This document shows, one piece after another, positions 8,761 to 30,879 of a stretch of 64,000 bases of DNA. A model generated the notes under the pieces. It was not told the origin of the DNA. It searched no databases and saw only the letters and a list, made by a program, of their open reading frames with translations. Both the position numbers and the translations under genes were made by a program. The DNA is from an uncultured Cytophagia bacterium (GTDB lineage Bacteria; Zhuqueibacterota; Zhuqueibacteria; Residuimicrobiales; Krinioviventaceae): contig CAZSMC010000006.1 in the NCBI GenBank assembly GCA_964607755.1, positions 19,955-83,954 on the forward strand, given 5' to 3'. Position 1 is the first letter of the stretch. The number at the start of each line of letters is the position of its first letter.

Positions 8761-8781
8761 CACGTCATGTTTTGGATTCAT

Positions 8782-9406: not shown

Positions 9407-9512
9407 TGTGAATTTTAATTTTTGGCAGAGTTAAATGACATGTTGTCCTGGAGGAGAGAAATTTAGTGGAAAAATCAAAAAAATCCCCGCCAAAATGACC
9501 GGGAAAAAACGA

Positions 9513-9851
9513 TTAAAAACTGCCGAATTTCAGTTTGACCATAGCATTCGGACCGCCAAATTCACCTGCCGAGAGGCCATCCAAATCGAATCCGGTTATC
9601 ACATGGTAGCTGGCACCCACATCGACGCGCATCCAGGTAACCAAATTAACTTCAATAGCGGCGGATGGCGTGGCAAAGTAGACCCAGTCCTTGTCCCAAT
9701 TGCCACCTCCGCTTTCAACGCTATACTCAAAATTGCCGAATCCGGCGTGAATGCCTGCTATCCAGTGAAACATCTTGTCCGAATTCCATACGTACTCGAA
9801 ATGAAGACCATGCAGATTCATTTTTGCATAAACTGGTTCATTTTCACACAT
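9513..9851 (-). CDS. Hypothetical small protein, Gly/aromatic-rich with a C-terminal Phe (beta-barrel-like tail); no signal peptide seen
   Basis: 112-aa ORF, 78 nt downstream of the FadL-like outer-membrane gene. Ends '...KLKFGSF'. May be a remnant or an accessory barrel fragment. Confidence 0.25.
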   Translation of the reverse strand: MCENEPVYAKMNLHGLHFEYVWNSDKMFHWIAGIHAGFGNFEYSVESGGGNWDKDWVYFATPSAAIEVNLVTWMRVDVGASYHVITGFDLDGLSAGEFGGPNAMVKLKFGSF

Positions 9852-9929
9852 TTCTTAAAATGGTCTGGTGTGAGAGGAAAAATACCGCTGTTTTATTTTA
9901 ACAAAAAAAAGAAAACGAGCTATTTCAAA

Positions 9930-11534
9930 TTAAAAACGATAATCGACACCGATCATCAAGTTGTTCACATTCATCGTATAAATACCCGCGACATTCTCGG
10001 CAACCAGCATGTTATCGTAGCTCCAGGTCAATATTTCTTTATCATCGATAAAAATTCGTTCGTAATTCAAAGAAACCGCAAACGGCCCTACTGGCATGGA
10101 AAGACCGAGGTACACGTTATTGCGGCGCCCGATTTCAGGAATTGACGGCGATACTGTTTTATCTGTTGCCGCCCGGTTCTCTGTGGTAAATCCGCCGCGC
10201 AAGGTAAGCTGTCCAGCCTTGTATTCCGCACCAACACCTAATTTGAAGGTGTTGTCCCAATTCTGAGCCAACTGGGAAATTGTTTCGCCAGTTGTATCTT
10301 TTATTTTGATGACATCCCAGGCTGACCATTGGGTGTAATTAACATCTACAGCCAAAAGCACATTTGAGAGGCCGGAATAGCTAATGCCAAGTCCGACTTT
10401 CATGGGCAGGGGGACAGTGACCGTCGCTTCGGTATCGACAATATTGACAACATCACCGGAATAAAAATCCGAGACAATTAAATATTGCTGAGAATCGATT
10501 TGTCCAGCTTTGAGCAGCTTGTCAATAATTTCATAAGTGTTTTCTGCCAATTTCTGATATTCCGGCGCATCAGCAAAATAGGTTGTTTGTCTGTAATCGC
10601 CGGATGGCTTGAAATCTGTGAAATATTGAAAGGTAGCGCCGATGCTTAAATCATCAATCGGTTTGTACATGATTCCAGCGTTTGCGCCGAAACTGGTGCC
10701 CTCGCTCTGCATTTCAACCTCGTTAATGAGATGATCAAATGGTGGTTTGCGCATTTGTTCTAATGTGGCTAATTGGCTTTCTTCTAATTTGTATTGCAGG
10801 TATTGATACAACGTTTCGTTGTACAAGTAAGGATTTTGCAAAAAAGCAGGTTGACGCAGACCAAGCTTACCTAGCAAAATACTGGCACCGACACCAACTG
10901 AAAGCCGGTCGCTCAGCTTTCGGGAAATTGTCGGATGAATGTCGACAATCTGAATATCGCTCTCATATTCAAATTTCGGATAGGCGGCATTATACCCTTT
11001 ATAATCATCAAAAGGAACTGGCCGGCCCTGGGGCTGGTTTATCGCTGTTTCGAGCACATCCCATTTTGCACCCCATGCCATGGGCACCCAAAGTCCAATG
11101 CCAAACGCCCACTTGCCAGTGCTGTAAGACACGCCAGCAGCCGGCACTACAAAATCAATGGGCTCTCCGGATCGTTCTGTCTGAAAAGCCACACTAAAGC
11201 GTTTAAATGCACTGTCGTTATGTTCCTTATAGTAATGACTGTCACCTGCCTTGAACGTTCCTCTGGGCATGACGTATTCTATGCCCAATCCTGCTCTCCA
11301 GCCATCAGTAAAAGCCAGACCGGCGGGATTCCAATACATGGCGCTCCAATCATCGGCAATAGAACGATAACTGCCCCCCATCGCAGTTGCGCGCGTACCG
11401 ACATTGGTTAATTCAATCCCTGCGGCAAAAAGCGAAGTGATTGTCATAAGCATTAGATAGAGTGCGGTTCGCAGAAGTATGGATTTGGTCATTGTTCCTC
11501 CGGAGTCCAGTTGTGTATTCCTTTTGTAGTTCAT
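9930..11534 (-). CDS. Outer-membrane beta-barrel protein, FadL/OmpP1/TodX family (a PorV-like candidate)
   Basis: 534 aa with a signal peptide. Mature N-terminus 'AAGIELTNVGTRATAMGGSYRSIADDWSAMYWNPAGLAF' aligns with E. coli FadL '[37 protein letters not shown]'. C-terminal '...VDYRF' ends in an aromatic residue. Confidence 0.7.
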   Translation of the reverse strand: MNYKRNTQLDSGGTMTKSILLRTALYLMLMTITSLFAAGIELTNVGTRATAMGGSYRSIADDWSAMYWNPAGLAFTDGWRAGLGIEYVMPRGTFKAGDSHYYKEHNDSAFKRFSVAFQTERSGEPIDFVVPAAGVSYSTGKWAFGIGLWVPMAWGAKWDVLETAINQPQGRPVPFDDYKGYNAAYPKFEYESDIQIVDIHPTISRKLSDRLSVGVGASILLGKLGLRQPAFLQNPYLYNETLYQYLQYKLEESQLATLEQMRKPPFDHLINEVEMQSEGTSFGANAGIMYKPIDDLSIGATFQYFTDFKPSGDYRQTTYFADAPEYQKLAENTYEIIDKLLKAGQIDSQQYLIVSDFYSGDVVNIVDTEATVTVPLPMKVGLGISYSGLSNVLLAVDVNYTQWSAWDVIKIKDTTGETISQLAQNWDNTFKLGVGAEYKAGQLTLRGGFTTENRAATDKTVSPSIPEIGRRNNVYLGLSMPVGPFAVSLNYERIFIDDKEILTWSYDNMLVAENVAGIYTMNVNNLMIGVDYRF

Positions 11535-14095
11535 TTTATCAATATTAATTTACCGGTGTCTGAAAAGGTCCGTTCTTCGGCAATAGCGCTGGCCTGCATA
11601 TTATAAAAATAGACACCGGACGTCAAATCGCTGGCATCAACCGGCACATCGTGGACACCAGCCGTGAATAATTGATCGTAAAGTTGCTTTTCAAGCTGAC
11701 CTAAAATATTGTAAAGCGAGATCGATACACGGTTCGCCTGAGGCAATTGAAAACGAATGGTTGTTGATGAATTAAATGGATTCGGATAGGCGCCAAATAA
11801 TTTATAGTTTTTTAGCTCTTGAGGCTTTTCCCGGATTGCTGTTTCATCTATTAATTTTAAAGAGACATTATCGACATACACATCGGCATTATTATCGCCA
11901 ACGTTAATCACCACCCGTCCATTGGGATCGGACGGGTCTTCCATGTTAAATTCATAAGAGTAATGCCTTTTTGCCGGGCCTACCCCTGACAAGCCAATCT
12001 TGCTGTAATTGATCCACGGACTCTCATCCTGGCCGACTTTGGCTTCAATGGTTCGAGGCGATACAGCCCAGGCATCAAATTCAAAAAGATACTTTTCGCC
12101 CTGAACCAGAGGCATCTGGTTTTGCCGCAATTGCACCGCATAAACCGCATTACCGCCGTTGCTGATCTTAAAATGCGTTACACCGTCTTCAACGACCCAA
12201 TCGGCTTCGCCACCTTGCAGCTCATAAATCCATGCGGCTTTGTTTCTGGAAAAATCACCATTGGGCACAAGATTAACATTAGCAGCAACGTTCTGCACGA
12301 TAACCCGTTCTTCATTGGAATAGTCGCTTTCCGATCCATCCGGATACACTGCCGTTACACGCATATTATAAACCGTATTGTTTTCGAGATTGGTCATCGT
12401 TTTAATTGTTTTTTTCGACGTGTCTAACAGAGCCGTCGAGTGCCGGGTTGGTCCACCGTAAATATTGTAATATTCAACATCCGGATCGCCAAATTTGTTG
12501 AATATCAGTTTCACCTGCTCAAGTCCCTGCTCGACATAAAGACTCGGTTTTTCCACATTACCATTCCATGGACAGCGAAAGGTGCGGTAACATTCGTCCG
12601 GAGAAGCCCAGTTCATTTCGTACACCACCTCGCCATTTGGCGTGACTTCTGTTGCCTTGGGGCGGCTTGTCACAGCCCAGTTGATCAGCGAGTTTCCGTT
12701 TGGCAGGCGCTGATGGTTTCCCATATAATGAGAATATTCTGTACCTGGCGGATTTCGGTATTCCCACATTAGGGTAGCTGTCATATTTTCCACATCAAGT
12801 TTATATTCCACACCGCGCGAGACTTTGGGATTGCGGGAGGTACCGTTATCAAATACTGAATAATGATTGTCTCCCAATGCCAGGGCAGAATGCTGATTCT
12901 TAAATCCGTTCAGATCGTCGTTGACAAACTCGAATTGATTTTCCGGTCCGCCCAAACGCCAGATAAACTCTCCGGTGTGCCGGTTTATTTTTGACACTTC
13001 ACTCAAATGCCGGCTGGATAAAATGATGTGACCGTCATCGTCGATATCGATGGAATTCATGTGCGGAAAGCGGATATTATCGCCTTGCAGGTTTTCCAGT
13101 TCCAAAAATTGAATCACATCTTCGAAATGATCCCATGCCCGCCACTCAAAAATTTTATCGTGTTCGGCTGTAAATTCCTGGATACAGCATTCGCGGACCG
13201 TGGCATTTTTTCTGCCACCGCTCACATAAGCGCTCATATCTACATTCTCGTTGCGACGTCCGATGAGCAGGACATTGGCATTTTCCAGGATAATACATTC
13301 GTGTTCATCGGTGCTGTATCCATCAACGGCGCGGTATTCTGCTAAAAAATTGAAATCCTGATCAAAATTCAAAAACCGGTGGCCGCCGTGGCGTGCCAGC
13401 ATGGTGATGGTGCCGTTTCGCTGAACTTTGAAATCACGGCGGCGGTCCGTGGTTCTCAGGTACCAGACCGGCGAGCCATCGTTATCGAAAATGATGTTGT
13501 ATGGCGTGCCGCGTCCGCGATTGTTCAGGAAAATATAACCTTCGCCTGGCGCCTTGTTGACGCTGACATCGATGTGCGGAAAATCGCTTGGCACAGATAC
13601 ACCGTTAGGCATGATCCGAGCCTGACCGGCAGTCGGTTTGTTCAATTCTCTCGAACTTTGTGATAAAGTGTTATCGTTAATTTCTTCATTCGCAGTCAAA
13701 TCATCAAGCGGTTCAATAGGAGTAATATGAAAAACAAAAGAATGTTTTTCGATTCGCTCGATCGATGGTTTTGCGAAAACAGGTTCCAGCGTAACACTGA
13801 CTGTTGCGCCATGTTCAAACAGCTCATCCGGTTCAAAAATCACAGTCCGGTTGTCTGAGGCAATTCGGGTCGTTCCGGAAATGATCCTATGGTCATCCCG
13901 AACACGAATAAATTTTTGCATATTCTCGAGTAATTGCGGCGATGCTTCATCGAATCTTACGATAATCGTCGTTTGCGGCGTTACCCGGGTTGCATTGTCT
14001 TTTGGATAGACGTACTGATATCCCGGTACACTCGAAGCAACGGCTATACTCATCATTGAAAACAGTAGTATTGAAAAAAGACAGAAACGTTTCAT
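11531..14095 (-). CDS. Arylsulfate sulfotransferase (ASST)-family beta-propeller protein with Ig-like N-terminus, FN3 domain, CBM4/9-like domain and T9SS C-terminal sorting domain (paralogue A)
   Basis: 854 aa. ASST signatures 'FPHMNSIDIDDDGHIILSSRHLSEVSKI', 'SVFDNGTSRN', 'VSRGVEYKLD...TATLMWEY' match E. coli AssT 'WAHVNSIAYDAKDDSIILSSRHQGVVKI', 'TIFDNGDGRH', 'YSRFVEYKIDEKKGTVQQVWEY'. CBM-like 'NGDFS..W....GG' region. C-terminus 'YPNPFNSSTTIRFQLP...SLYNILGQ'. Confidence 0.8.
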   Translation of the reverse strand: MKRFCLFSILLFSMMSIAVASSVPGYQYVYPKDNATRVTPQTTIIVRFDEASPQLLENMQKFIRVRDDHRIISGTTRIASDNRTVIFEPDELFEHGATVSVTLEPVFAKPSIERIEKHSFVFHITPIEPLDDLTANEEINDNTLSQSSRELNKPTAGQARIMPNGVSVPSDFPHIDVSVNKAPGEGYIFLNNRGRGTPYNIIFDNDGSPVWYLRTTDRRRDFKVQRNGTITMLARHGGHRFLNFDQDFNFLAEYRAVDGYSTDEHECIILENANVLLIGRRNENVDMSAYVSGGRKNATVRECCIQEFTAEHDKIFEWRAWDHFEDVIQFLELENLQGDNIRFPHMNSIDIDDDGHIILSSRHLSEVSKINRHTGEFIWRLGGPENQFEFVNDDLNGFKNQHSALALGDNHYSVFDNGTSRNPKVSRGVEYKLDVENMTATLMWEYRNPPGTEYSHYMGNHQRLPNGNSLINWAVTSRPKATEVTPNGEVVYEMNWASPDECYRTFRCPWNGNVEKPSLYVEQGLEQVKLIFNKFGDPDVEYYNIYGGPTRHSTALLDTSKKTIKTMTNLENNTVYNMRVTAVYPDGSESDYSNEERVIVQNVAANVNLVPNGDFSRNKAAWIYELQGGEADWVVEDGVTHFKISNGGNAVYAVQLRQNQMPLVQGEKYLFEFDAWAVSPRTIEAKVGQDESPWINYSKIGLSGVGPAKRHYSYEFNMEDPSDPNGRVVINVGDNNADVYVDNVSLKLIDETAIREKPQELKNYKLFGAYPNPFNSSTTIRFQLPQANRVSISLYNILGQLEKQLYDQLFTAGVHDVPVDASDLTSGVYFYNMQASAIAEERTFSDTGKLILIK

Positions 14096-14147
14096 AAATT
14101 TTTTCCCTTGTCAGTTGTGCACATGATTTGTCGAAATGTCATTCAGC

Positions 14148-17100
14148 TCATTTTACAAATATCATTTTTTTAACGGCTTGATAGCGATTTTTGCTCTTTG
14201 CACTTTTGGCTTGCATCTCGTAAAAATAAATGCCTGTGCTCTTATCAGAAGCGTCAAAATCGATGCTGTGCTGACCAGTCTGATGTGTGCGATTCACAAG
14301 CTCAGCAATTTCTTCGCCACGAATATTATAAACACGTAATTTTACATTTGCGGCTTCCGGCACAAAATAAGAGATCGTTGTGCTCGTATTAAACGGATTG
14401 GGATAAGCAGGATACAACTCAAAAGTATCCGGCACCCGGGTTTCACCGCCCTCCAGTACGCTGGTATCATTAACGATTTGAAAATTATCAAAATGCGCTT
14501 CGCACAGAGCGTTGTCGTTGTGCGCTGTGACTGCCAGTCCGATGTACACCGTTTCATTCATATCGATCTGTTCCGAATCCACATAATTCCAGGATTCGCC
14601 GTCAGCGGATTCGTAACCGGTAAAAATATTCCCCCGGCGCACCAGTTTTATCCAGTAAGGCATTTTGAGATCGCCCTTGTTGGTATTGTGTGAACTTGCA
14701 TTTTTCTCTATACGTCTTTGGAACGCCATGCCGTTATTTACAGTCGCGCACATCATGGCGTGCTTTGCTGCCGCATGAAGCGAATTTCGAATCATCACCC
14801 CGGCTTTGGCCCATTCGTGCGTGTCGCTCATGGACAGCACACGTGCCGAAAGTTCGACGTTGCCTTCCACTCGCTGATAGGCATAATGAAACTCATCTCT
14901 GTTGCCCCAGATATCATCGCCCGAGCCTTTGACCACGTACCGGTCCTGCCAGATACCGGCATCACCCTCGATGCTCGTTTGTCCGATATCACGGTGCATC
15001 CAGGGGGAAGACAATTCGCGAAGAGGCAGGTCATCATCAATATTTTTCAGCGAAACATTGTCGATATAAACGTCTTCGGAAGCGCCGCCGCAATTGAACA
15101 CAATGCGCGCTTTATAATCAGAAGGATTCTCCATGAGAAACTCATAGGAAAAATGCCGTTTCGTTCTTCCCAGTGGTGTGGGATTGATTTTGCCATAGTT
15201 TTCATACGGACTCTCTGCCCGTTCAATTTTAGCATCGATGGCCCGGTTGCTTTCCGAGTAGGCATCGAATTCAAACACATATTTTTCACCTCGGACTATG
15301 GGAATATTTTCCTGTTTCAACTGCACGTTCCGGAAATCATCTCCGCCGTTATTAATATTGATGTGACAAAAGCCTTCGCTGGTCACATCAACTTGAGCCT
15401 CGGCATTCGTGACGGCAAAATCCCATTTATTTGTACTGTTCGAAAAATTACCGTTCCGGACCATATTGTCACCAGGCGAAACCAGATTCACATAAATGTC
15501 TTCTTCGTTAGAAAAATCGCTTTCGACACCCTGATCGTCTACAGCAGTAACGCGAAAATAATAGCGCTGGTCATTTGGCAGACCGGTGATTTTTGCCAGC
15601 GTTGCCTTGGACGTATCCACCACGGTTGTCGGATTGGGTGCGTTATCGCCGTAAATGTTATAATACTCGACGTTCGAATCGCCAAATTTATTAAAAACCA
15701 ACGTCACGTTATCACTGCCCTGTTCAACAAACAACAGCGGTTTCTCGACAACACCATCCCAGGGAAAGCGAAACGTGCGATAAGTATGATAACCATCGAC
15801 AAAATTCATCTCATAAACAACATTTCCATCCGGGGTAACTTCCATGGCCTTGGGTGAGTTCGATTTTACCCAGTTAATCAAGGTATTTCCATTTGGAAGC
15901 CGTTGAGCATTTCCCATATAATGCGTGTAATAATTTCTATTATCTGATCCACGACATTCCCACACCAGAGTTGCCGTCATTTTTTCAGTATCGAGTACAT
16001 ATTCAACTGCGCGGGATTGTTTCGGGTTGTGTAAATTACCATTGTCAAAAACTGTATAATGATTATCGCCGAGCACTCGAATATCATGTTGCATGTTAAA
16101 ACCATTGAGCTCATCATTAACAAATTCAAACTCATTATTTGCCCCGCCAAGCCGCCAGATAATCTGGCCAGTCTGCCGATGAATCTTTGTCACCTCGCTC
16201 AAATGACGGCTGGACAACAAAATATGTCCGTCCTCATCAATATCGATGGCATTCATATGCGGAAATCGAAATGAATTGGCTCTGGGGTCTGCTTCATTTG
16301 GCTCACAATAACCAATAATATCAGCAGGGTCAAAGTTATCCCAGGCTCGCCACTGAAATATTTTTTCGTGGTCAGGGGTAAATTCCTGGATGCAGCATTC
16401 TCGAACATTGGCGTTTGTCTTGCCGCCCGCCACATATTGACTCATATCAACAGTATCATTACGCCGGCCGATCAAAAGATAATGACCGTTTTCCAGCAAC
16501 TGCATGCCGTGTTCATCAGTGCCGTATCCATCCACAGCTTTAAATTCATCGATTTGGTTAAAATTTATATCATAATTCACAAAACGGTGTCCGCCATCTC
16601 GGGCGAGCATGGTGATGGTACCGTTTTTCTGCACCTTAAAATCACGGCGGCGGTCTCCGTCCTTGAAACGATGGTACCACACCGGCGAGCCGTCGTTATC
16701 AAAAATAATGTTATAGGGACCTTCATTGCGCCAGTTATTAATAAAAATATATCCATCGCCGGGATTCTTGTTGACAAAGACATCAATGTGCGGGAAATCG
16801 CTGGGAACCGAGACGCCGTTCGGCATGATCATCGCCCGACCCACAGCATCCGGTTTTGACAACGACGGCTGGACTTTTTCATCACGCTCGTCCGGCATGA
16901 CAAAATCCGGCAAAGGTTCATTGTTGGGAGTCACTTTAAATTCGAACGATGTCGGTTGAATCGTCTTGTTCAAAGTCCCAGTCACCTGGGGTGAGATAGT
17001 AACTGTCACCCGTTCCCCCGGTACATACTTTTGCTGGGGAGTAAAAATGATGGTTTCATCATCGGAAGCAATTTTTGTATTGCCAGTCAGGTTGCCGCTC

Positions 17101-17318
17101 TTGCTCCCGCTTATCTGAACACATGAATGGAGATTCGTCAACGCTGACGGTTCCACGTTCTCGAAACGGATGATAATCGTAGCGTTTCGTGCAACGCGGG
17201 TCGAATTGGCTTCGGGATAGAGATATTGATAATCATCCGGGATTTCAGCAGAAACGATCAGCGGGAATAAAACGAGCAACAGCCCATACATCAACCTATG
17301 TAAAAAACGATTTCGCAT
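14148..17318 (-). CDS. ASST-family T9SS cargo protein, paralogue B, with an extra ~200-aa ConA-like/DUF1349-like jelly-roll insert before the C-terminal domain
   Basis: 1056 aa. Same architecture as paralogue A ('FPHMNAIDIDEDGHILLSSRHLSEVTKI', 'VRECCIQEFT'). The insert contains '...FHYAYQRVEGNVELSARVLSMSDTHEWAKAGVMIRNS...'. C-terminus 'YPNPFNTSTTISYFVP...'. Confidence 0.8.
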   Translation of the reverse strand: MRNRFLHRLMYGLLLVLFPLIVSAEIPDDYQYLYPEANSTRVARNATIIIRFENVEPSALTNLHSCVQISGSKSGNLTGNTKIASDDETIIFTPQQKYVPGERVTVTISPQVTGTLNKTIQPTSFEFKVTPNNEPLPDFVMPDERDEKVQPSLSKPDAVGRAMIMPNGVSVPSDFPHIDVFVNKNPGDGYIFINNWRNEGPYNIIFDNDGSPVWYHRFKDGDRRRDFKVQKNGTITMLARDGGHRFVNYDINFNQIDEFKAVDGYGTDEHGMQLLENGHYLLIGRRNDTVDMSQYVAGGKTNANVRECCIQEFTPDHEKIFQWRAWDNFDPADIIGYCEPNEADPRANSFRFPHMNAIDIDEDGHILLSSRHLSEVTKIHRQTGQIIWRLGGANNEFEFVNDELNGFNMQHDIRVLGDNHYTVFDNGNLHNPKQSRAVEYVLDTEKMTATLVWECRGSDNRNYYTHYMGNAQRLPNGNTLINWVKSNSPKAMEVTPDGNVVYEMNFVDGYHTYRTFRFPWDGVVEKPLLFVEQGSDNVTLVFNKFGDSNVEYYNIYGDNAPNPTTVVDTSKATLAKITGLPNDQRYYFRVTAVDDQGVESDFSNEEDIYVNLVSPGDNMVRNGNFSNSTNKWDFAVTNAEAQVDVTSEGFCHININNGGDDFRNVQLKQENIPIVRGEKYVFEFDAYSESNRAIDAKIERAESPYENYGKINPTPLGRTKRHFSYEFLMENPSDYKARIVFNCGGASEDVYIDNVSLKNIDDDLPLRELSSPWMHRDIGQTSIEGDAGIWQDRYVVKGSGDDIWGNRDEFHYAYQRVEGNVELSARVLSMSDTHEWAKAGVMIRNSLHAAAKHAMMCATVNNGMAFQRRIEKNASSHNTNKGDLKMPYWIKLVRRGNIFTGYESADGESWNYVDSEQIDMNETVYIGLAVTAHNDNALCEAHFDNFQIVNDTSVLEGGETRVPDTFELYPAYPNPFNTSTTISYFVPEAANVKLRVYNIRGEEIAELVNRTHQTGQHSIDFDASDKSTGIYFYEMQAKSAKSKNRYQAVKKMIFVK

Positions 17319-17366
17319 TTTGATTTATCCTCGTTGATTATAAATTAAAATTAACAGAAATGAAAC

Positions 17367-19913: not shown

Positions 19914-19937
19914 AGGTCATCCTTGTAGAGAATGATA

Positions 19938-20726: not shown

Positions 20727-21116
20727 CGAGCACCGGGGAATTTCGTCATTCCTTTAATTACCTGGATTTCAAGCGTTCCGCTTGCAGTTGTTTAAAAAAA
20801 TAGATTGTAAAAAATTGTTAATACATTTTTAAAATATATAATTTATAGCGACATTTCAAAGCATGAATTTACAATCAATGTATGAAAAATCCGTAAACTT
20901 TACAGCGATTAAAGCGAACCTTTTTACCTGTCAGGCATTCAATTAGATACATGAATTTAGAGAAACACCTGTAAATATTGACAATAAAAAATGTATATAG
21001 ATACATATCATTTAAGTAAACCAACTTGACAAGAAATAGTTCTTGATTTTCTATCAAAATTGTGTTAAAATTATGGACATTTTAAATTTGGATAAACTAA
21101 GGATTTTATAAGGCTT

Positions 21117-22649: not shown

Positions 22650-22760
22650 GCAGGATTAGGACAGCAAGACTTTTTATAGAAAGGTGCGCCAGTAATACCT
22701 TAGTTAATAGTGTATAATGCAGATGTTTGTTTTGTGAGCAGAAAATCGGAAACAGGTTTA

Positions 22761-22857
22761 ACAATGGGTCGCTGAATGAATTCAATTTATTTGATAAGAC
22801 CAAAATAAATAGTAGCTTATAAATATTACTCCCAATCAAAAAGCGACCCATTGTTCC
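22761..22857. repeat. About 95-bp element bounded by perfect 13-bp inverted repeats (AACAATGGGTCGC ... GCGACCCATTGTT)
   Basis: Read directly at 22761-22773 and 22845-22857. The AT-rich 71-nt interior has no ORF. It lies in a convergent intergenic region. Confidence 0.35.
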
Positions 22858-23070
22858 AGATGTCAGATTATCTCCACCTAACCCAGGTTCGACACTTTAA
22901 TGTTAAATTCAATATTTACAATAAAAGAACAGGTCTTCACTACACGGGATTAGGGAATCATTTTTATTGTAAATAATGAACTTAAATCAAAAATAATTTA
23001 TAAAATAGCCAAAATATAAAACAACTGTCGAACTTGGGCTAATAACCAAGGTAATACATTTGCCATAAAA

Positions 23071-23100
23071 AAAAGTCCGGTAAAAATTTACCGGACTTTT
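23071..23100. terminator. Bidirectional rho-independent terminator between convergent genes
   Basis: A8 (23066-73), then GTCCGGTAAA-aa-TTTACCGGAC (23075-23096), then TTTT. A perfect 10-bp-arm palindrome flanked by an A-run and a T-run. Confidence 0.6.
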
Positions 23101-23134
23101 CGCGTTCATCTCATTCTTTTCAATTCATGTGGTC

Positions 23135-24220
23135 TCAACTCAGAAACGTCTCATAAATCGGGGCATAATCTTGTCGAATCTTTTCCTCATCCAGACCAAA
23201 TTTTTCCAGACTGTATTTATGTTTGCTCTTGTAATTTCTTTGCTTTTCTGCGGTTTCCTGAATGGTTTTTTGCAGTTCAGATGACGGTTTTTCACCAATA
23301 AAGTCCATAATCTCGTTCATCAGATTATCAAAATTCTGCATCAGTCGCGGAAACGTGACGACTTTGACCTTATCTTTTGGGATTTTACCAGATACATAAT
23401 CATTATAGAATTTCATCGACAGCTCCAGAAACGCATCGTAAAGACGATCGATGTATTTCTGCCGTGTCTCTTCCGGCAAATTCCAGAATCCGAATCGGCC
23501 GTCAAGGACGCCAGTGACCAGACTTAATCCCGAAGGCACAGTGCTGAGCGGGTCCCTCACCATGTACAGGATTTTAGCATCAGGGAATTCGTTTAAAAAG
23601 CGGGGAATGCGAACGCCAAGCGAAAACAACTTGCCAATCACCCGGTCGCGTTTTTCGCTGATAAGATTGCGGCGCCATATTTTTCTCAGCCAGCTAAAAT
23701 CACGTTTTGAGGTATCGCGAATGTCGGGATCGAACATCTCTTTTGGATCGTCTTCAGACCAGGCGAGGAAAAAGCCATAAACAAAAAAGCCGTCAAAGTA
23801 ACGGAAAAGCAAGGAAGGATCATCGGTTTCAATGCCGGTCAGGCTTGTTTTGTGCGCAGCCGCTTCGTGGAACCGAGCCGGGCTCATTTTTTCTAGCAGG
23901 GGCAGAAAAGGTTTTAATAGTGTTTGCAAAACCAGCGAGGGGTAAAGCATTTTCCAGATTCGCATCCCGGAACCAAGTCCGTTTTGGACTAAAAAGCGCT
24001 GCAAAAAGGTCGTGCCGGTTCTGGGATTACCCACAATAACCACCGGATTTTTCACCCGTTTTTTCCACAATGACGGAAAAAAGACATAGTCCAGAATCAT
24101 GCCAATAGAGACGATTACATAGAGCAGCAAAAATCCGATAAACATGGGCAGGAGAGCGAACCATTTATGAAACGTGTGACCAACTGCCTTGAAAACCATG
24201 ATCATTCGAGAAAGCATCAA
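23135..24220 (-). CDS. Membrane-anchored PAPS-dependent sulfotransferase (Sulfotransfer_3-like)
   Basis: 361 aa. N-terminal transmembrane segment. 5'-PSB P-loop 'VIVGNPRTGTTFLQRFL'. 3'-PB-like 'LYMVRDPLSTVPS'. Confidence 0.7.
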   Translation of the reverse strand: MMLSRMIMVFKAVGHTFHKWFALLPMFIGFLLLYVIVSIGMILDYVFFPSLWKKRVKNPVVIVGNPRTGTTFLQRFLVQNGLGSGMRIWKMLYPSLVLQTLLKPFLPLLEKMSPARFHEAAAHKTSLTGIETDDPSLLFRYFDGFFVYGFFLAWSEDDPKEMFDPDIRDTSKRDFSWLRKIWRRNLISEKRDRVIGKLFSLGVRIPRFLNEFPDAKILYMVRDPLSTVPSGLSLVTGVLDGRFGFWNLPEETRQKYIDRLYDAFLELSMKFYNDYVSGKIPKDKVKVVTFPRLMQNFDNLMNEIMDFIGEKPSSELQKTIQETAEKQRNYKSKHKYSLEKFGLDEEKIRQDYAPIYETFLS

Positions 24221-24242
24221 AATCCTCCGTTATATATTTTCC

Positions 24243-25211
24243 TTACCATTGCACCAGCGCAAAAGCAACAGACAAACCGGCTCCGGTCCCGCCAAGGAGC
24301 AACAGATCACCACGTTTTAAAAGTCCCTTTTCATCAGCAATAGCCAGGGCCAGCGGCGTGGACGACGCAATCGTATTTCCGTATTCTGCGATAATATTGA
24401 CAACTTTGCTCTGTTCAATCCCATAGTCGCTTGCCAGATCCAAAGCTGGTCCCGATGCCTGATGAGGGATGAGCCAATCGATATCTTTGGCGCCCAGACC
24501 ATTGCGGCTCAATAAATCTTCCAGGGCATCCCTGACACGCTTCCTTGCCATGCGATAAACTCGTGTGCCTTTCATATGAAAAAGATTGTCCTCCGGCTTG
24601 GTCTTTTCCGGATGCCCGGGTGGATGCTTTGTCCCGGCACCGCGAAATTCGGTGAACTCGGCGCCTTCCGGCCAGGTGTTCATTTCCCAATCGATAATCC
24701 GGCTGTTTTCCGAATCGGGCGTTTTTTCCACAACGGCAGCAGCGGCCGCATCTCCGAATAGCGATGCACTTTCCGGTTCTTTCATATTTCGCCAGGGCGT
24801 TCCGGTTTCAGAAGAGACGATTAATATTTTTTTGTACATATCTGTTTGCAGCAGTGTTGCCGCATTCATCAAAGCGACAACAAAAGAAAGACAGGTAGCG
24901 TGCACTGACCAGGACGGAATGCCGTTGTAACCAAGCTGCCGCATAATGAAAACTGAACTGTCAGGAAGAAGTTGAAGCGGAGTGGTCGACGCGTTCAGCA
25001 GACAATCCGGAGCGCGGTTATCCCCGAGCGCCATCTGTGCTGCTTTTGCACCCATCACTTCCATAGATTCTTCGGCAATGTGCCGATTGATGACGCCAGT
25101 GCGCGATTTTATCCACTTTGCGCTGCGGCCGATTTTCGGCGCCAGGTCTTCAGCCGTCTCGACTTTTGGCGGAGCACAATAGCCGGTTGATACAATTTTT
25201 ATGTTTAGCAT
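24243..25211 (-). CDS. FabH-like 3-oxoacyl-ACP synthase III family ketosynthase/acyltransferase (second copy, not in the fab cluster)
   Basis: Start moved to 'MLNIKIVSTGY' (ATG complement at 25209-25211, AAAGGA RBS). Cys-His-Asn triad context 'HATCLSF', 'PHQAS', 'YGNTIASS'. 22 nt upstream of the sulfotransferase. Confidence 0.7.
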   Translation of the reverse strand: MLNIKIVSTGYCAPPKVETAEDLAPKIGRSAKWIKSRTGVINRHIAEESMEVMGAKAAQMALGDNRAPDCLLNASTTPLQLLPDSSVFIMRQLGYNGIPSWSVHATCLSFVVALMNAATLLQTDMYKKILIVSSETGTPWRNMKEPESASLFGDAAAAAVVEKTPDSENSRIIDWEMNTWPEGAEFTEFRGAGTKHPPGHPEKTKPEDNLFHMKGTRVYRMARKRVRDALEDLLSRNGLGAKDIDWLIPHQASGPALDLASDYGIEQSKVVNIIAEYGNTIASSTPLALAIADEKGLLKRGDLLLLGGTGAGLSVAFALVQW

Positions 25212-25317
25212 GGAATATTCTTTCCTTTTATCCCACGATTCATCCGCGCCCGGTTTGCATATTGCGGCCGGATCAATCATTTGGCGACCGATCATGGATC
25301 AGTCGCCAATCGTTCTT

Positions 25318-28185
25318 TTAGTTAATGACCATCATTTTTCGCGTTTTGGAAAAGTGACGGTCAACTGTTAAAGTATAAAAGTAAATACCTGAGGTCAACT
25401 CGTGGGCATCAAAATTGACCCGGTACTCATTGGCTTGCTGAACCTCGTTGACGAGCGTTTTAACGTGCTTGCCAAGGACGTCGTAAACCTTTAACGTCAC
25501 ATGCCCGGCTTTTGGTATGTGATAGGTGATGGTGGTTTGAGCATTGAACGGATTCGGATGATTCTGCAAAAGTGAGTAATCTGAAATAACGCTTTCATGC
25601 TCTTCTACCAAAACACCGGATGTGATACTGAACGACTGACTCTTGTCATTGACGTTGGCGTCTGCTAAACTCTTGATTAAAATCTGATAATTTGACCCCT
25701 CACTTAAACTCACGGGGATATCCCATGAATATCCCCCGGAGCTATAGGTGGTGTCAATTGTCATGTAAAATGAATCGTTTTTGTAAAGCTCGATAATAAC
25801 ATCACTTTTGATAATGTCATCCCAGGTGATGAAATGTTCGATTCCGCGCTGCCACTTTGTACCACTTTTTGGTAAAATGATGGAAATGTAAGGCGCTTCT
25901 GTCTTGAACGATTGCGACGGCGACCATGCACTCTCACCCACGCTGTTGAATGCCTTGACCCGCCAGTAATACGTCGAATTATTTTCCGCAGATTCAACAT
26001 TATAAACGGCAGGCGAGATAAATTCTTCATCGACAATCAAATTGGTAAATGCCTCATCCGAGGCAACCTGCAAATGATACGAATCAGCATAACCCACCGG
26101 ATTCCATTCCAGTCGGACCGGTTGTGTCTGATCCACAGACACTCCATCTCGCGGACTGACAAGCAGCGGCGGGAACGTTTGCGACTCGTAATCCGGATAA
26201 CCCAAAGCAAATTCACCAAATTTCGTCATTGTGGCTTCGACTTTGTTTGTTGCCGGATTGTAATTTGTCGGCAAAGGAATGAACAATCCTCGGCCTTCGA
26301 ATTCCCGATGATAAACCACGATTGAATCCGGATTTTCAAACGCGTAAAAATCGGCATCAAAAGAAATTTTTGCTTTTATATTCGATATGTTAAATTGAGA
26401 AACAACAATCCGTTCAGGACGAATAATGGGTGCTTTGCCCAGCCATTGCGGCGAAACAGGTGCATAATTGTAGCGTTTCACTCTGGCTTCGTTATAGCCA
26501 AACCCGCCCATTTCATTGAACTTGAGACTGACTCCGGTTTTCTGATCCGCCGTATCAAAAGTATATGTATTTCCCACCAGCAGCTCGAACAACATGACAT
26601 TGGCAGCCGGCGCCCCGCGTTCCCAGTTGAATCGAAACGCGCGATAACTGGCTGTCAGCGGTTTATCGAATTTTAATTCGAGAACCACGTTGCCATCAGG
26701 ATCGACTTCGCTGATAGCGGCTTTGCCGTACATTGCCCCCATGCCCCATCCAATTACAGTGTTGCCATTTGATAAGCGTTGAGCGCTTCCCATTGTAGGA
26801 GTAAAAATATCCGGGTCATGACGGAATTCCCAGACCTTTTCTGCGGTCATGGCTTTCTCATCTATTTCATACTCGACGGCCCTGGAATAGGGGCGATTAA
26901 AACCGTGATGCTGATCACCGCCATCGAACATGATGATATTGCCATTGGGCAAGCGGCGCACATCGTGCTGAAACATGAAATACAAGGGCGCAAATGGCTC
27001 GCCGGTATCATCGGTGATGTCAAACTGGTTGTTCTTACCACCCATCCGCCAAATAATGTCTCCTGTTTGACGGTTGACTTTTGTAATTTCCGCAAGAGCC
27101 AATGTGGAAACGAGGAGATGACTGTCATTGTCCAGTTCAATGGAATTGATATGGATGGCATCAAAAATCGGCTGCGTCAGATCGTTATAGGAATCCGTGA
27201 GTTTATAATGATCCCAGCTTCGCCATTGAAAAATAACATTTTTATCGACATCGAGTTCTTGAATAACAGAACCGGCCACCATAGCGCCGGGGTGACCGCC
27301 GTCCACGATTTTACTCATATCCACAGGCTGTAAATCGTAACACACCATCATAACATGACCGTTGGGTAGCATCTGAAATTCGTGAAAATCAGCAATATAA
27401 CCATTACCCATCTGATAATTATCAACCACACTATAAGTGCTGTCCATGATAAAAAATTCCGTGTCACCGCCGCCGCCAAACTGATAAAACTCGGAAATCA
27501 CGCCATAGCACAGCATGCCGTTAGGCAGCACTTTGAAATCAACCGGTGCCCCGGTGGTAATTTTGTTCCAATATTGAATGGACTCGTCGTTATTGATAAT
27601 GAGATTATAGCCGTTGCCTGTTACAAAATGAGTGGCAGAGAGAAAGAGCGAGCCTTTTGCTGTTTCGCCGGTTTTGGTGATAGAAAAATGCGGGAAACCG
27701 GTGGGCAAACTATCAGCCATGGTTTTCCCCAGTGGCATAGCAGGCTGATCCGGAACAAGCCAGCTACTCAGCTCTTTTTGGTATGTACTCGGATTCACAG
27801 GTTGTTCCAACGGTGTGACTTTGAATTGAAAAGAAAACGCCGGCACAGCGGTCCCGTCCTGGGTTCGGCATCCTTCCTTTAAAGAGATAGTGACCGTTTC
27901 GGACGGATCAAAACGCTGATCTGGTTTGAAAATGACTGTTTTTTCATCTGGTGAGAATACTATCGTTCCGGAATGTTCTCCGCTTTTTGAGCCAATCACA
28001 GAAAATTTTTCTTTATCAAAGGTGGATCGATCAATAATTTCACCCGGACGAATAATGATATTATTACTTCGCGGAACGAACCTCGCTCCATCGAGCGGAA
28101 AAATATATTCCACAGAAGATGGTTTTGCAGCAAAAAGAATGGTTGTTACTGCGAGAATACAAAGGATGAGAGTAAATTTTTTCAT
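25318..28185 (-). CDS. Divergent ASST-family T9SS cargo protein, paralogue D (SSRH changed to STLA; no CBM4/9; two FN3-like domains)
   Basis: Start at 'MKKFTLIL' (GAGGAG RBS 11 nt upstream), not the ORF-track ATG at 28203. 'IHINSIELDNDSHLLVSTLALAEITKVNRQTGDIIWRMGG', 'YSRAVEYEID'. C-terminus 'HPNPFNAQTTITYHIP'. Confidence 0.75.
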   Translation of the reverse strand: MKKFTLILCILAVTTILFAAKPSSVEYIFPLDGARFVPRSNNIIIRPGEIIDRSTFDKEKFSVIGSKSGEHSGTIVFSPDEKTVIFKPDQRFDPSETVTISLKEGCRTQDGTAVPAFSFQFKVTPLEQPVNPSTYQKELSSWLVPDQPAMPLGKTMADSLPTGFPHFSITKTGETAKGSLFLSATHFVTGNGYNLIINNDESIQYWNKITTGAPVDFKVLPNGMLCYGVISEFYQFGGGGDTEFFIMDSTYSVVDNYQMGNGYIADFHEFQMLPNGHVMMVCYDLQPVDMSKIVDGGHPGAMVAGSVIQELDVDKNVIFQWRSWDHYKLTDSYNDLTQPIFDAIHINSIELDNDSHLLVSTLALAEITKVNRQTGDIIWRMGGKNNQFDITDDTGEPFAPLYFMFQHDVRRLPNGNIIMFDGGDQHHGFNRPYSRAVEYEIDEKAMTAEKVWEFRHDPDIFTPTMGSAQRLSNGNTVIGWGMGAMYGKAAISEVDPDGNVVLELKFDKPLTASYRAFRFNWERGAPAANVMLFELLVGNTYTFDTADQKTGVSLKFNEMGGFGYNEARVKRYNYAPVSPQWLGKAPIIRPERIVVSQFNISNIKAKISFDADFYAFENPDSIVVYHREFEGRGLFIPLPTNYNPATNKVEATMTKFGEFALGYPDYESQTFPPLLVSPRDGVSVDQTQPVRLEWNPVGYADSYHLQVASDEAFTNLIVDEEFISPAVYNVESAENNSTYYWRVKAFNSVGESAWSPSQSFKTEAPYISIILPKSGTKWQRGIEHFITWDDIIKSDVIIELYKNDSFYMTIDTTYSSGGYSWDIPVSLSEGSNYQILIKSLADANVNDKSQSFSITSGVLVEEHESVISDYSLLQNHPNPFNAQTTITYHIPKAGHVTLKVYDVLGKHVKTLVNEVQQANEYRVNFDAHELTSGIYFYTLTVDRHFSKTRKMMVIN

Positions 28186-28302
28186 AGTTGTTTTTCTCCT
28201 CAATTCAAAAGTTCCTTTCTGTTCTATTTCCGTTTAGGTAATATGACCTCGCATTATTAGATTTGTAGCACACCTGAAAGGTGTACTACAAGCGTCTTGG
28301 CT

Positions 28303-30879
28303 TTATTTGAGCACTGTTAATTTTTGAATCTTGTCAAATGTGCGTGAACTGTTTGTCGATCTGGCTTGCATGCGATAAAAGTAAAGTCCTGAGCTTAAAT
28401 CAATACGACTTAACTGGATAGCATGCGAACCGGCATTAAATTCTGCATTTACCAGGTCGGCTATTTTTTTGCCCAAAAGATTGTAAATTGATATTTTAAC
28501 GTGACTCTTTTCAGGAACATCGAACGGAATCGTGGTTACCGGATTAAACGGATTGGGGTAATTGCGTTTCAACGCATATTTTCTTGGTGCTGAATCTTGT
28601 TTTTCAACCCTGGTATCGTTCATCATTTTTAAGGTAATATTATCGATATATACATCGGCATTATCGGTTCCGGTATTGATAACCACCCGACTGTTTGCAT
28701 CAGTTGGTTCTTCCATCAGGAATTCATATGAGTAATGTTTTTTGCGCCGCCCCAAAGCGGTCAAGCCGATTTTGCTATAATTGATCCACGGCCCATGATC
28801 CTGCGCCACCTTGATTTCTGCCACACGGGACGCATCTGCCCAGGCATCGAATTCAAATAGATATCTTTCGCCTTCAATAAGCGTGTAACCATTTTGGCGC
28901 AATTGAACTTCCCAAATATTATCTCCGCCCCGCTCAATGTCAAAATGACTGACACCGTCCTCAATTATCCATTCTGCCCGCGCACTACCGCGAACTTCCC
29001 ATGTCCAATTATTTTTATGCTGAGAAAAATCACCGTTAATCATCATGTTATCACCGGGCTCGACAAAATTGACCATAATATCTTTTTCTTCAGAAAAAGC
29101 GCTTTCGGTTCCATCCTTGTTGACCGCCGTGACACGGAAATAATAACGATGACCGTTTTCCAGGCCGGTGAGTTCTTTTAACGTTGCTTTTGACGTATCG
29201 ATAACTGTTGTGGGATGACGTTGGGTACCACCGTAGATATTATAATAGTCCACATCCGGATCGCCGAATTTGTTAAAGATCAGAGTTATATTGTTATATT
29301 TCGGTTCGACAAACAAATTCGGCTGCAGCGCCATGCCGTTCCATGGAAAACGAAACACCCGGTAGCTGTGATAACGCTGGACAAAATTCATCTCGTAAAC
29401 TTTTTCGCCGTCCGGTGTCACTTCAGTACTTTTGGGAAGTGAGCCGTCGGCCCAGTTTATATGCGTATTTCCATTTGGCAGCCGCTGGACATTGCCCATC
29501 CAGTGCGAGTACTTGTCCGGATTATCACGAAAACTCCATACCAGCTCGGCAGTCAAATTCTCGGTATCAATTTCATATTCCAGTGCACGCGAGACCGGAG
29601 GATCATGCTCGTTACCGTTATCAAAAACAGTGTAATGGTTATTACCGAGAGCGCGAACAGAGTGCTGGTTTTCGAATCCATGCAGCGGATCGTTGATGAA
29701 TTCAAAATCATTATTTTCGCCGCTCAATCTCCAAATAATCTCACCTGTCTCCCGGTCGATTTTTGTCGCCTCACTCAGATGCCGACTTGACAAAACGATA
29801 TTGCCGTCATCATCAATATCAATCGAATTCATGTGCGGAAAGCGGATATATCCGCTGGTCAAATCATTTTCACCCGGTACATAGGTATCGCGAATATCAA
29901 AATTATCCCAGGCACGCCACTCAAAAATCAATTCATGTTCCGGCGTAAATTCCTGGATGCAGCATTCACGAACTGTGGCATTTTTCTGGCCACCGTCCAC
30001 ATATTTGCTCATATCCACTGTTTCAGTCCGGCGACCGATAAGCAGATAATGCCCGTCTTCCAAAAGCTGCATGCCGTGTTCATCAGTAGCGTATCCATTA
30101 ACCGCGTGAAAAGAATCGACGACTGTGTAATTGTGATCTAATTCAATAAATCCTTCACCAAACGGATAACCAGTGCGCACCAGCATGGTTAGATTGCCAT
30201 TCTTCTGAACTTTGAAATCCCGGCGCCGGTCCGGAGTTTTCATGTACCAGATAGGCGAGCCGTCGCTTTCAAGAATCAGATTGTACGATTGTCCTCCCCA
30301 GTTATTAAGGAACAGATAGCCATCAGATGGATTCTCGTTGATAAAAACTTCGATGTGCGGAAAATCACTCGGCACAGACACGCCATTTGGCATAATCCTG
30401 GCTGTGCTTTGCAAATTCGTTTTTGACACAGATTTTTGCAGTGCGCAATGCTTTTCTTGTTCATCTTTTGTGAGCGCAATATCAGTGTAATTTTCACCCA
30501 CAGAAACAGTAAACTGGTAATTCAAATTTTTTACATGAACATTCTTGGCAGAGAACCGCGGCGACACAGTCACTGATACGCGTTCACCAGGAGCAAACGG
30601 CGTATCCGGTTCAAAAATAACGGTGTTACCATCTGAAGCAATTTTTGTGCGGCCCGTATATTCTCTATTTTCCTCATCCCTTACTTTAAGAAAAGAGGAT
30701 AAATTCGTAATGTGTGTTGGCGCAATTTCATCAAACCGCATAATAATGGTTGAATGCTTTGACACATGAACAGCATCAGGTTTGGGAAAAAGATATTGAT
30801 AACCCATATCTCGAAAAGAAGAAAATGAACAGCCGATTAAAAGAAAAAATACAAAAATGATTTTTTTTACATCAAACAT
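28303..30879 (-). CDS. ASST-family T9SS cargo protein, paralogue E
   Basis: 858 aa. 'FPHMNSIDIDDDGNIVLSSRHLSEATKI', 'VRECCIQEFT', CBM-like 'MINGDFSQHKNNWTWEVRGS...'. C-terminus 'YPNPFNPVTTIPFDVP'. Confidence 0.8.
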   Translation of the reverse strand: MFDVKKIIFVFFLLIGCSFSSFRDMGYQYLFPKPDAVHVSKHSTIIMRFDEIAPTHITNLSSFLKVRDEENREYTGRTKIASDGNTVIFEPDTPFAPGERVSVTVSPRFSAKNVHVKNLNYQFTVSVGENYTDIALTKDEQEKHCALQKSVSKTNLQSTARIMPNGVSVPSDFPHIEVFINENPSDGYLFLNNWGGQSYNLILESDGSPIWYMKTPDRRRDFKVQKNGNLTMLVRTGYPFGEGFIELDHNYTVVDSFHAVNGYATDEHGMQLLEDGHYLLIGRRTETVDMSKYVDGGQKNATVRECCIQEFTPEHELIFEWRAWDNFDIRDTYVPGENDLTSGYIRFPHMNSIDIDDDGNIVLSSRHLSEATKIDRETGEIIWRLSGENNDFEFINDPLHGFENQHSVRALGNNHYTVFDNGNEHDPPVSRALEYEIDTENLTAELVWSFRDNPDKYSHWMGNVQRLPNGNTHINWADGSLPKSTEVTPDGEKVYEMNFVQRYHSYRVFRFPWNGMALQPNLFVEPKYNNITLIFNKFGDPDVDYYNIYGGTQRHPTTVIDTSKATLKELTGLENGHRYYFRVTAVNKDGTESAFSEEKDIMVNFVEPGDNMMINGDFSQHKNNWTWEVRGSARAEWIIEDGVSHFDIERGGDNIWEVQLRQNGYTLIEGERYLFEFDAWADASRVAEIKVAQDHGPWINYSKIGLTALGRRKKHYSYEFLMEEPTDANSRVVINTGTDNADVYIDNITLKMMNDTRVEKQDSAPRKYALKRNYPNPFNPVTTIPFDVPEKSHVKISIYNLLGKKIADLVNAEFNAGSHAIQLSRIDLSSGLYFYRMQARSTNSSRTFDKIQKLTVLK

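Follow-up and report, generated by a model that had tools for sequence, protein, structure and literature searches.

The sulfate donor 3′-phosphoadenosine-5′-phosphosulfate (PAPS) is confined to the cytoplasm, which leaves a donor problem for sulfation outside the cell. To our knowledge, the caprazamycin relay is the only biological workaround, and it has so far been deemed peculiar to a single streptomycete antibiotic pathway. In this two-step sulfation, described for Streptomyces sp. MK730-62F2, the type III polyketide synthase (PKS) Cpz6 makes triketide pyrones, the PAPS-dependent Cpz8 sulfates them and the arylsulfate sulfotransferase (ASST) Cpz4 transfers the sulfate (Tang et al. 2013, as recounted in PMC4924298 and PMC4257720). 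A 2026 review of aryl sulfotransferases (ASTs) presents Cpz4 as the caprazamycin-biosynthesis ASST of Streptomyces that preferentially sulfates a sugar hydroxyl, and gives the Escherichia coli AssT entry 3ELQ as the sole AST structure. AssT of E. coli CFT073 and the gut/Firmicutes enzymes DhAST and BvAST each occur as one periplasmic or soluble protein and have no carbohydrate-binding module (CBM), FN3 domain, C-terminal domain (CTD) for secretion or dedicated donor pathway. Here, we analysed a 64,000-nucleotide stretch of DNA from an uncultured Cytophagia bacterium (GenBank assembly GCA_964607755.1, contig CAZSMC010000006.1; hereafter the window), in which two blocks of ASST genes enclose a ketosynthase (KS) gene and a PAPS-type sulfotransferase (ST) gene. 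With somewhat better than even confidence, we read this locus as a Cpz-like two-step sulfation relay adapted to extracellular use, in which a carrier would bring sulfate to ASSTs exported through type IX secretion (T9SS) that would probably act on beta-glucan-like glycans.

The genes at the centre of this reading are the following:

11531-14095, minus strand: ASST A1, an open reading frame (ORF) of 854 aa with a signal peptide, Big_5 at 29-104, a propeller at about 186-500, a beta-sandwich at about 518-600, CBM4_9 at 608-734 and a T9SS CTD at 770-837 (Pfam, NCBIfam and AlphaFold2 (AF2) model)
14148-17318, minus strand: ASST A2, 1056 aa, laid out like A1 with an additional DUF1349 (concanavalin-like) at 806-948 before the CTD (Pfam)
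17367-19913, minus strand: ASST A3, 848 aa, with Big_5, propeller, FN3-like region, CBM4_9 and CTD (Pfam)
23135-24220, minus strand: PAPS-type ST, 361 aa (Pfam Sulfotransfer_3 / Sulfotransfer_1)
24243-25295, minus strand: KS of the 3-ketoacyl-acyl carrier protein synthase III (KAS III) type, probable start Met29 at 25211 (PDB matches MxnB and CorB)
25318-28203, minus strand: ASST A4, 961 aa, with Big_5, a propeller with two insertions, FN3-like region, a Kre9_KNH Ig domain and CTD, without a CBM (Pfam)
28303-30879, minus strand: ASST A5, 858 aa, with Big_5, propeller, FN3-like region, CBM4_9 and CTD (Pfam)

The original prediction had described five ASST-family paralogues of 848-1056 aa in two tandem blocks, and five minus-strand ORFs indeed fall in blocks at 11531-19913 (A1-A3) and 25318-30879 (A4-A5). 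Pfam confirmed the predicted ASST propeller in all five proteins (PF05935 with E 4e-27 to 5e-35, together with PF14269) and placed it in no different six-bladed family, and the propeller motifs quoted at the time, PHMNSIDIDDDGHIILSSRH, FDNG and VEY.ID, are all present. The Ig-like N-terminus was borne out by Big_5 matches above the gathering cut-off in each protein, the CBM4/9-like domain by PF02018 matches of 40.2-55.7 bits (cut-off 25.9) in A1, A2, A3 and A5 with none in A4, and the T9SS CTD by PF18962 (Por_Secre_tail, 38.7-42.5 bits against a cut-off of 27) and TIGR04183 (34.8-41.8 against 23) in all five. The proposed FN3 domain fared less well, because fn3 scored 17.9-23.9 bits against the Pfam cut-off of 25 and gave no match in A1; the AF2 model of A1 (predicted local distance difference test (pLDDT) score 85.4), however, has a beta-sandwich between propeller and CBM, and in view of this model 'FN3-like' appears a fair description of that region. 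An NCBIfam scan of the five proteins reached no ASST-specific model and returned only CTD and CBM fragments.

Read directly, the N-termini of all five proteins are hydrophobic and look like Sec signal peptides. Because they combine such signal peptides with CTDs, these ASSTs are predicted to have their site of action outside a cell of the Gram-negative type. The window yielded no T9SS component, and a PorV gene adjoins related ASSTs in locus L102 (loci from our searches carry L numbers). The layout and the export signal are shared with the T9SS-secreted glycoside hydrolases (GHs) of the Fibrobacterota-Chlorobiota-Bacteroidota group, which join a catalytic domain to Ig/FN3 domains, a CBM and a type A CTD; their catalytic module is a hydrolase, whereas the proteins described here have a sulfotransferase-type propeller. 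The CBM-bearing paralogues are 52-55% identical to one another and A4 is 32-35% identical to the others, while A1, A2 and A4 are closer (56-63%) to counterparts in another KSB1 assembly than to their own-genome paralogues. The counterpart of A2 in L001 (62% identical) also has DUF1349, and that of A4 in L004 is 56% identical. Recent tandem amplification was ruled out by the low identity among paralogues and by these counterparts in another assembly; judged by their divergence, the paralogues are old.

The earlier assignment to the 'E. coli AssT type' had to be revised, because Cpz4 is the closer relative. A profile built from the five paralogues found Cpz4 (9KF4/9KF6) as its best solved relative in the PDB (E 2e-48), whereas 3ELQ was matched over a partial region only (E 2e-12). 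In Foldseek searches, the top matches of the A1 model were again Cpz4 (9kf6/9kf4; E 3e-26, target-normalised TM 0.71, 27% identity). AssT, DhAST and BvAST share with the five proteins the Pfam family, a six-bladed propeller that follows a beta-sandwich and aligned active-site residues. The likeness to the Cpz system extends from the sequence and fold of the propeller to a common three-part logic within one locus, namely a thiolase-superfamily ketosynthase, a PAPS-type sulfotransferase and a PAPS-independent ASST. The differences are that the Cpz ketosynthase is a type III PKS and the one described here a KAS III near MxnB and CorB, that the Cpz system has one ASST in place of five or more paralogues, and that, unlike Cpz4, the ASSTs described here carry signal peptides, Ig and FN3-like domains, CBM4 modules and T9SS CTDs. 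Moreover, the Cpz locus is a streptomycete antibiotic pathway, whereas the present locus and its relatives occur in candidate division KSB1, Bacteroidota and Ignavibacteriota; here there are no antibiotic biosynthetic genes, and the locus includes genes for a FadL-like channel, a tetratricopeptide repeat (TPR) protein and a lipoprotein that the Cpz system does not have.

The profile of the five paralogues was aligned to E. coli AssT, for which the active-site residues are listed in the 2026 AST review. His252 corresponds to His265 of A1, His356 to His345, Asn358 to Asn347, Arg374 to Arg362 and the sulfo-histidine His436 to His402. The equivalents of His252, His356, Asn358 and His436 are kept in all five paralogues. 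At the position of Arg374, A1, A2 and A5 have Arg, A3 has Lys and A4 has Leu, so that the five-residue pattern reads HHNRH in A1, A2 and A5, HHNKH in A3 and HHNLH in A4; the exchange in A3 is conservative by its residue class, and A4 does not have the complete residue set. His436 aligns with an invariant 'QH' motif in the five paralogues and 39 homologues, and the column of A1 His402 is also where the H436N mutant entry 4p04 aligns. Across the 39 homologues, His265, His345, Asn347 and His402 never vary, with Arg conserved to 90% or more. E. coli Thr501 lies opposite an invariant Met, where the HMMER alignment becomes ragged towards its end.

Among full-length propellers from related loci, 26 of 42 have HHNRH. 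The ASST directly upstream of the KS gene always has Leu, Met or Val at the Arg374 site and keeps the three histidines (A4 in the window and its equivalents in L004, L007-L010, L013, L016, L019 and L020). Because this pattern holds in KSB1, Bacteroidota and Ignavibacteriota, we consider the Arg-less KS-adjacent ASST a distinct conserved subtype. In the operons from Bacteroidota and Ignavibacteriota, the leading ASST is degenerate at the active site, with the patterns AHDSN and NNNAN (L019:3522-6374 and L020:4072-6375), and these two proteins are probably pseudoenzymes kept in the cluster.

The KS and ST genes between the ASST blocks were passed over in the original prediction, as were the TPR, lipoprotein and FadL-like genes, and their presence suggests an answer to the question of where an extracellular sulfate donor could come from. 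The ST was matched by Sulfotransfer_3 (E 7e-15) and Sulfotransfer_1 (E 4e-9), has a hydrophobic N-terminal segment, and its PRTGTT and RDP motifs have aligned counterparts in PDB 2z6v, an entry deposited as an uncharacterised protein that we take to be a mycobacterial sulfotransferase. Its family comprises 1732 homologues, of which the best 120 are 59-76% identical and spread across phyla. A Cpz4-like ASST and a PAPS-type sulfotransferase thus occur in one locus, as in the Cpz system.

The best PDB matches of the KS were MxnB (4V2P, E 3e-50) and CorB (4YUC, about 3e-50), followed at some distance by the best true FabH (7e-38), and its Cys-His-Asn triad aligned with those of MxnB and CorB. Pfam found in the KS no match to Chal_sti_synt, the family expected of a type III PKS such as Cpz6, so that this protein would be at best a functional analogue of Cpz6 and not an orthologue. 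MxnB and CorB form the alpha-pyrone rings of myxopyronin and corallopyronin by head-to-head joining, and they use carrier-protein-bound chains from large PKS/non-ribosomal peptide synthetase (NRPS) lines, whereas the locus described here contains no assembly line or carrier protein. A role of the KS as the housekeeping FabH was ruled out, because the true fatty-acid operon (plsX-fabH-fabD-fabG-(acpP)-fabF, then rnc) lies at 46673-52086 on the minus strand. Its FabH (50044-51033), to which the KS is 31% identical, matches true FabHs in the PDB with 1e-99 and MxnB with only 5e-38. The KS is therefore predicted to be a separate, specialised KAS III paralogue.

To follow the locus through other organisms, we searched genomes for the ST and obtained 10 loci, to which the next counts refer. 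The KS gene adjoins the ST gene in nine of them; in the other, L015, some 2 kb separate the two. An A4-type ASST stands directly upstream of the KS in seven; in the remaining three, the contig ends inside the KS (L011), there is none in the 2.2 kb of upstream DNA (L014) or only weak ASST matches were found (L015). The lipoprotein follows in six loci, five of which also have the TPR protein, and a FadL gene precedes the A4-type gene in three. The number of CBM-type ASSTs per locus ranges from none to several. In one Bacteroidota and one Ignavibacteriota assembly, the order is ASST-ASST-KS-ST-APS kinase followed by three to four further ASSTs, all of which are T9SS cargo. Altogether, three phyla preserve the order ASST-KS-ST, with proteins that are 50-70% identical. 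The gene for APS (adenosine 5′-phosphosulfate) kinase stands beside the cluster in L019, L020, L030 and L031, and its presence ties the cluster to PAPS supply. In L021, the ST lies beside an inositol-monophosphatase-family gene, with a pair of one FadL and one ASST gene nearby. The ASST-KS-ST core is repeated in L104 (KSB1-like), where some 10 kb separate an MMPL transporter (20820-21083) from the ST and the position of the FadL-like channel among the ASSTs is occupied by a TonB-dependent receptor (1030-3219); both are candidates for export or uptake partners that the window does not have.

A metagenome scan recovered 453 relatives of the ST, and 39 loci of at least 8 kb were kept. An ASST-like gene was present in 27 of these, a KS in 12 and an APS kinase in seven. 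Members of the ST family are abundant on ocean metagenome contigs (L037-L101, Tara among them) and share 53-58% identity with the ST of the window. They are often accompanied by a distant ASST-like gene (22-33% identity), encoded 3-6 kb off on the other strand, and by a KS some 2 kb downstream; in some cases there is an APS kinase as well. The genome locus L015, which is of this ocean-contig kind, is labelled Neomarinimicrobiota.

The closest named homologues of the ASSTs come from candidate division KSB1 and some Calditrichales. Their architecture, which is common in KSB1 and Calditrichales assemblies, recurs with 45-82% identity in at least 120 clusters of the database, under the automatic NCBI name 'aryl-sulfate sulfotransferase'. 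Multi-copy arrays are usual in KSB1-type assemblies, with six ASSTs in L001/L004 and five in L103. The five tandem ASSTs of the latter (L103:3393-18644), three of them with CBM_4_9, have no recorded Por_Secre_tail match and lie beside a Melibiase/NPCBM gene and a gene for an extracytoplasmic function (ECF) sigma factor; this locus may represent a variant with a different mode of export or anchoring.

Four further genes of the window adjoin or intersperse the ASST blocks:

9930-11534, minus strand: FadL/TodX-family outer-membrane channel (Pfam Toluene_X)
19938-20726, minus strand: secreted TPR protein, 262 aa, similar to TPR proteins that bind lipids
21117-22649, plus strand: lipoprotein, 510 aa, with four Ig-like beta-sandwich domains (AF2 model)
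31232-32596, minus strand: sulfatase, 454 aa (Pfam Sulfatase, E 3e-64)

Because the genes are spaced by 22-99 nt, the arrangement suggests two operons, A5-A4-KS-ST, which A5 opens and in which the ST lies 1.1 kb from A4, and TPR-A3-A2-A1-FadL, which the TPR gene opens and the FadL-like gene ends with a 4-nt overlap with the A1 stop. A promoter and terminator scan of 9000-28900, which used a sigma-70 consensus that may not apply to this phylum, was uninformative on operon boundaries, with terminator-like sites at chance level (23 versus 20.8 expected).

The FadL-like protein was matched by Toluene_X over residues 34-501 (E 5e-38), had no PDB sequence match and showed a short NCBIfam PorV_fam match at residues 44-84 only. 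A role as a PorV-type T9SS shuttle was ruled out, given that Toluene_X covers the whole barrel, that there is no Pfam PorV match and that the PorV_fam likeness is limited to some 40 N-terminal residues. FadL-like homologues adjoin ASSTs in L004/L012, L013, L016 and L023. The gene partly overlaps a plus-strand ORF at 9435-10145 that has no Pfam match; this ORF and an Hsp20 gene (8782-9213) lie in a local dip in G+C content (0.373 at 8001-10000, compared with 0.41-0.50 elsewhere in the window). The best PDB match of the TPR protein was the sterol-binding BstC (7t1s, E 1e-6), followed by RMD3; NCBIfam BstC scored E 1e-10, which is below its cut-off, and homologues are named RMD1-3 in L004 and L104. 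Synteny of the TPR gene was seen in six of the 10 genome loci. The lipoprotein has an invariant Cys23 and always lies on the opposite strand. It belongs to no Pfam or NCBIfam family, with no Pfam match even at E 5, and its AF2 model (pLDDT 84.8) retrieved only generic multi-Ig pilins and adhesins in Foldseek (TM <0.25). Only 58 homologues were found, and the named ones come from KSB1 assemblies. The sulfatase gene lies 352 nt upstream of A5. A sulfatase is also found near ST, KS and ASST genes in L015 and not in the other loci, and we regard it as a possible associate of the ASST locus.

Building on the architectures, the conservation of catalytic residues, the closest relatives and the synteny across phyla that we observed, we infer carrier chemistry, topology, export route, direction of transfer and acceptor as follows. 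The KAS III (24243-25295) would make a lipophilic hydroxy-pyrone or a similar enolic carrier, onto which the membrane-associated ST (23135-24220) would load sulfate from PAPS in the cytoplasm or at the inner membrane, giving an aryl-sulfate-like ester of high transfer potential. This carrier would then cross the envelope, with the BstC-like TPR protein, the four-Ig lipoprotein and the FadL-like channel as candidates for its passage or for taking it up again once spent; being hydrophobic, the spent carrier could come back through the FadL channel. Outside, the Cpz4-like ASSTs would take the sulfuryl group onto His402 (A1 numbering; His436 in E. coli) by a ping-pong mechanism and hand it to a hydroxyl of a glycan held by CBM4. 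Because there is no PAPS outside the cell, such a relay would supply the extracellular donor. Its proposed end result, O-sulfation of glycans, is shared with the PAPS-dependent carbohydrate sulfotransferases (Sulfotransfer_1/2), with the difference that the glycan-facing enzyme would here be PAPS-independent and secreted.

Because a CBM4 module targets four of the five enzymes, the most likely acceptor would be a beta-glucan-like glycan, either in the environment or at the surface of the cell itself. Among solved structures, the CBM is similar to the CBM4 of 1gui, a PDB entry deposited under the name laminarinase 16A (profile E 3e-11, Foldseek TM 0.81), and to the CBM4s of cellulases; Foldseek also matched it to 3p6b (TM 0.69). 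In two unrelated assemblies, pairs of one CBM4_9-type and one Kre9-type ASST are embedded in T9SS beta-glucanase clusters. One pair (L002, 3257-15440) lies with GH16, GH3-CBM6, GH5, GH30 and LacI, and the other (L102, 2772-17151) with PorV, two GH16, GH5-CBM6-CBM35 and a major facilitator superfamily sugar transporter; in neither locus is a KS or ST found near the pair. Upstream of A5, the window encodes the sulfatase, a GH3 and a GH127. A 162-aa ORF in the same region (32662-33150, minus strand) joins the first 78 positions of an apiosidase-like catalytic domain to a Collagen_bind_2 tail and looks like an internally deleted glycoside hydrolase remnant.

Several points weigh against the relay as we propose it, and the acceptor is the weakest link of the argument. 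The ketosynthase is predicted to be a KAS III and not a type III PKS, and its similarity to MxnB and CorB (E 3e-50) does not prove pyrone formation. The KS-adjacent A4 is without the sulfuryl-binding Arg. Within the 64-kb window, there is no inner-membrane exporter and no gene for PAPS synthesis. FadL-family channels are known for uptake. A sulfotransferase within glycan-degrading clusters is counter-intuitive, and many ASST paralogues lie far from any KS-ST pair (L002, L005, L006, L102 and L103). This last point speaks for an account that we consider unlikely, namely that the ASSTs use environmental aryl sulfates (algal, plant or sediment phenolics) or shuffle sulfate among phenols, and that the neighbouring KS and ST serve to form some other end product, for instance a sulfated alkyl-pyrone or resorcinol lipid. 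Characterised ASTs take many simple aryl sulfates and phenols, their natural substrates being mostly unknown (2026 AST review), and bacterial pairs of ketosynthase and sulfotransferase can make sulfated lipid end products, as with the sulfated adipostatins. An environmental donor would nevertheless leave unexplained why the order ASST-KS-ST persists in three phyla at such protein identity, with APS kinase alongside, why ASST-like genes accompany the ST in more than two thirds of the metagenome loci kept, and why the nearest characterised relative, Cpz4, has just such a partner pair.

The relay could also be real and serve a different acceptor, such as a small molecule of the producer, an envelope lipid or a glycolipid, with CBM, Ig domains and CTD as mere surface anchors. 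The sole characterised precedent tailors a secondary metabolite, the accessory genes are of a lipid type (the FadL-like channel, the BstC-like TPR protein and the MMPL transporter of L104), and the Bacteroidota and Ignavibacteriota versions are without a CBM. We nonetheless rate this account a little lower still, as the CBM4 exceeds the Pfam cut-off in four of five proteins and is a good structural match to glucan-binding CBM4s, as the presence of five to seven diverged paralogues in a locus suggests a range of acceptors and not one metabolite, and as the locus has no NRPS, PKS or glycosyltransferase genes. That the propellers have given up sulfotransfer and serve as glycan-binding or adhesin modules, or have another catalytic activity on glycans, seems quite improbable. 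The degenerate members in L019 and L020, the loss of Arg in the A4 type and a build that resembles T9SS adhesins or glycoside hydrolases would agree with it, but the three His and the Asn are invariant and the Arg nearly so among the 39 homologues, and HHNRH recurs in well over half of the propellers although identity between subtypes falls to about 30%; conservation of this pattern at such low identity therefore points to purifying selection on a sulfuryl-transfer site. We give the least credence, and very little, to a reverse use of the system, in which sulfate would be stripped from polysaccharides onto a pyrone or phenol, as a sulfatase-independent desulfation that aids glycan breakdown. 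As a matter of general chemistry, sugar (alkyl) sulfates donate less readily than aryl sulfates, which disfavours the reverse direction. The same-operon PAPS-dependent ST and, in other phyla, the APS kinase fit only sulfate activation, and the GH16, GH30 and GH3 neighbours suggest unsulfated beta-glucans. What speaks for desulfation are the degradative neighbours (sulfatase, GH3, GH127 and the apiosidase remnant), the relatives within GH clusters and the fact that ping-pong ASTs are reversible in principle (2026 AST review).

Apart from the ASST locus, the window contains a minus-strand cluster at 1206-8055 with three MttB-family methyltransferases (1206-2681, 3477-5012 and 5889-7469), a corrinoid B12-binding protein (2770-3447), a pterin-binding protein (5055-5876) and a MetH-activation-like protein (7381-8055), which by its gene content looks like a system for corrinoid-dependent methyl transfer from a methylated amine. 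At 45160-45843 on the plus strand, a full-length match to GPP34 (Golgi phosphoprotein 3, E 3e-49) is encoded in this bacterial genome.

Both the enzyme family and the principle of the relay are already known. What appears to be new is the secreted, CBM-targeted, multi-paralogue form, the use of a KAS III for the type III PKS, the envelope accessory genes and the preservation of this putative system across uncultured phyla. That no characterised ASST is known with such an architecture or copy number, as the original prediction had supposed, agrees with the 2026 AST review, which makes no mention of secreted, CBM-bearing or polysaccharide-directed ASTs. In the account of a 2024 review, the polysaccharide sulfotransferases known so far draw directly on PAPS and work in places where it is available. 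In the literature searched, no paper joins ASTs with T9SS or KSB1 with sulfotransferases, the PDB code 9KF4 is not cited, and 'two-step sulfation' in the sense of enzymatic sulfation always traces to the streptomycete work.

The locus suggests that the logic of the relay has been built into a secreted, multi-paralogue and carbohydrate-targeted system that occurs in several uncultured phyla and is common in sediments and the ocean. We hold it possible, if rather doubtful, that this represents a widespread unrecognised extracellular sulfation pathway, in which a recyclable lipophilic pyrone sulfate would carry sulfate activated as cytoplasmic PAPS over the envelope to secreted CBM-targeted ASST arrays that act on environmental or surface polysaccharides. 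With three recombinant proteins, the question of extracellular sulfate transfer becomes testable. If the relay is true, these proteins would be the first (family of) PAPS-independent glycan or polysaccharide sulfotransferases, and a large clade of ASSTs with unknown natural substrates would gain a physiological role. They would further constitute cofactor-free biocatalysts with inbuilt substrate targeting. For the organisms themselves, the system could be a microbial input to the pool of degradation-resistant sulfated polysaccharides or, given the adjoining sulfatase and GH3, may be a means of tagging glycans for private use.

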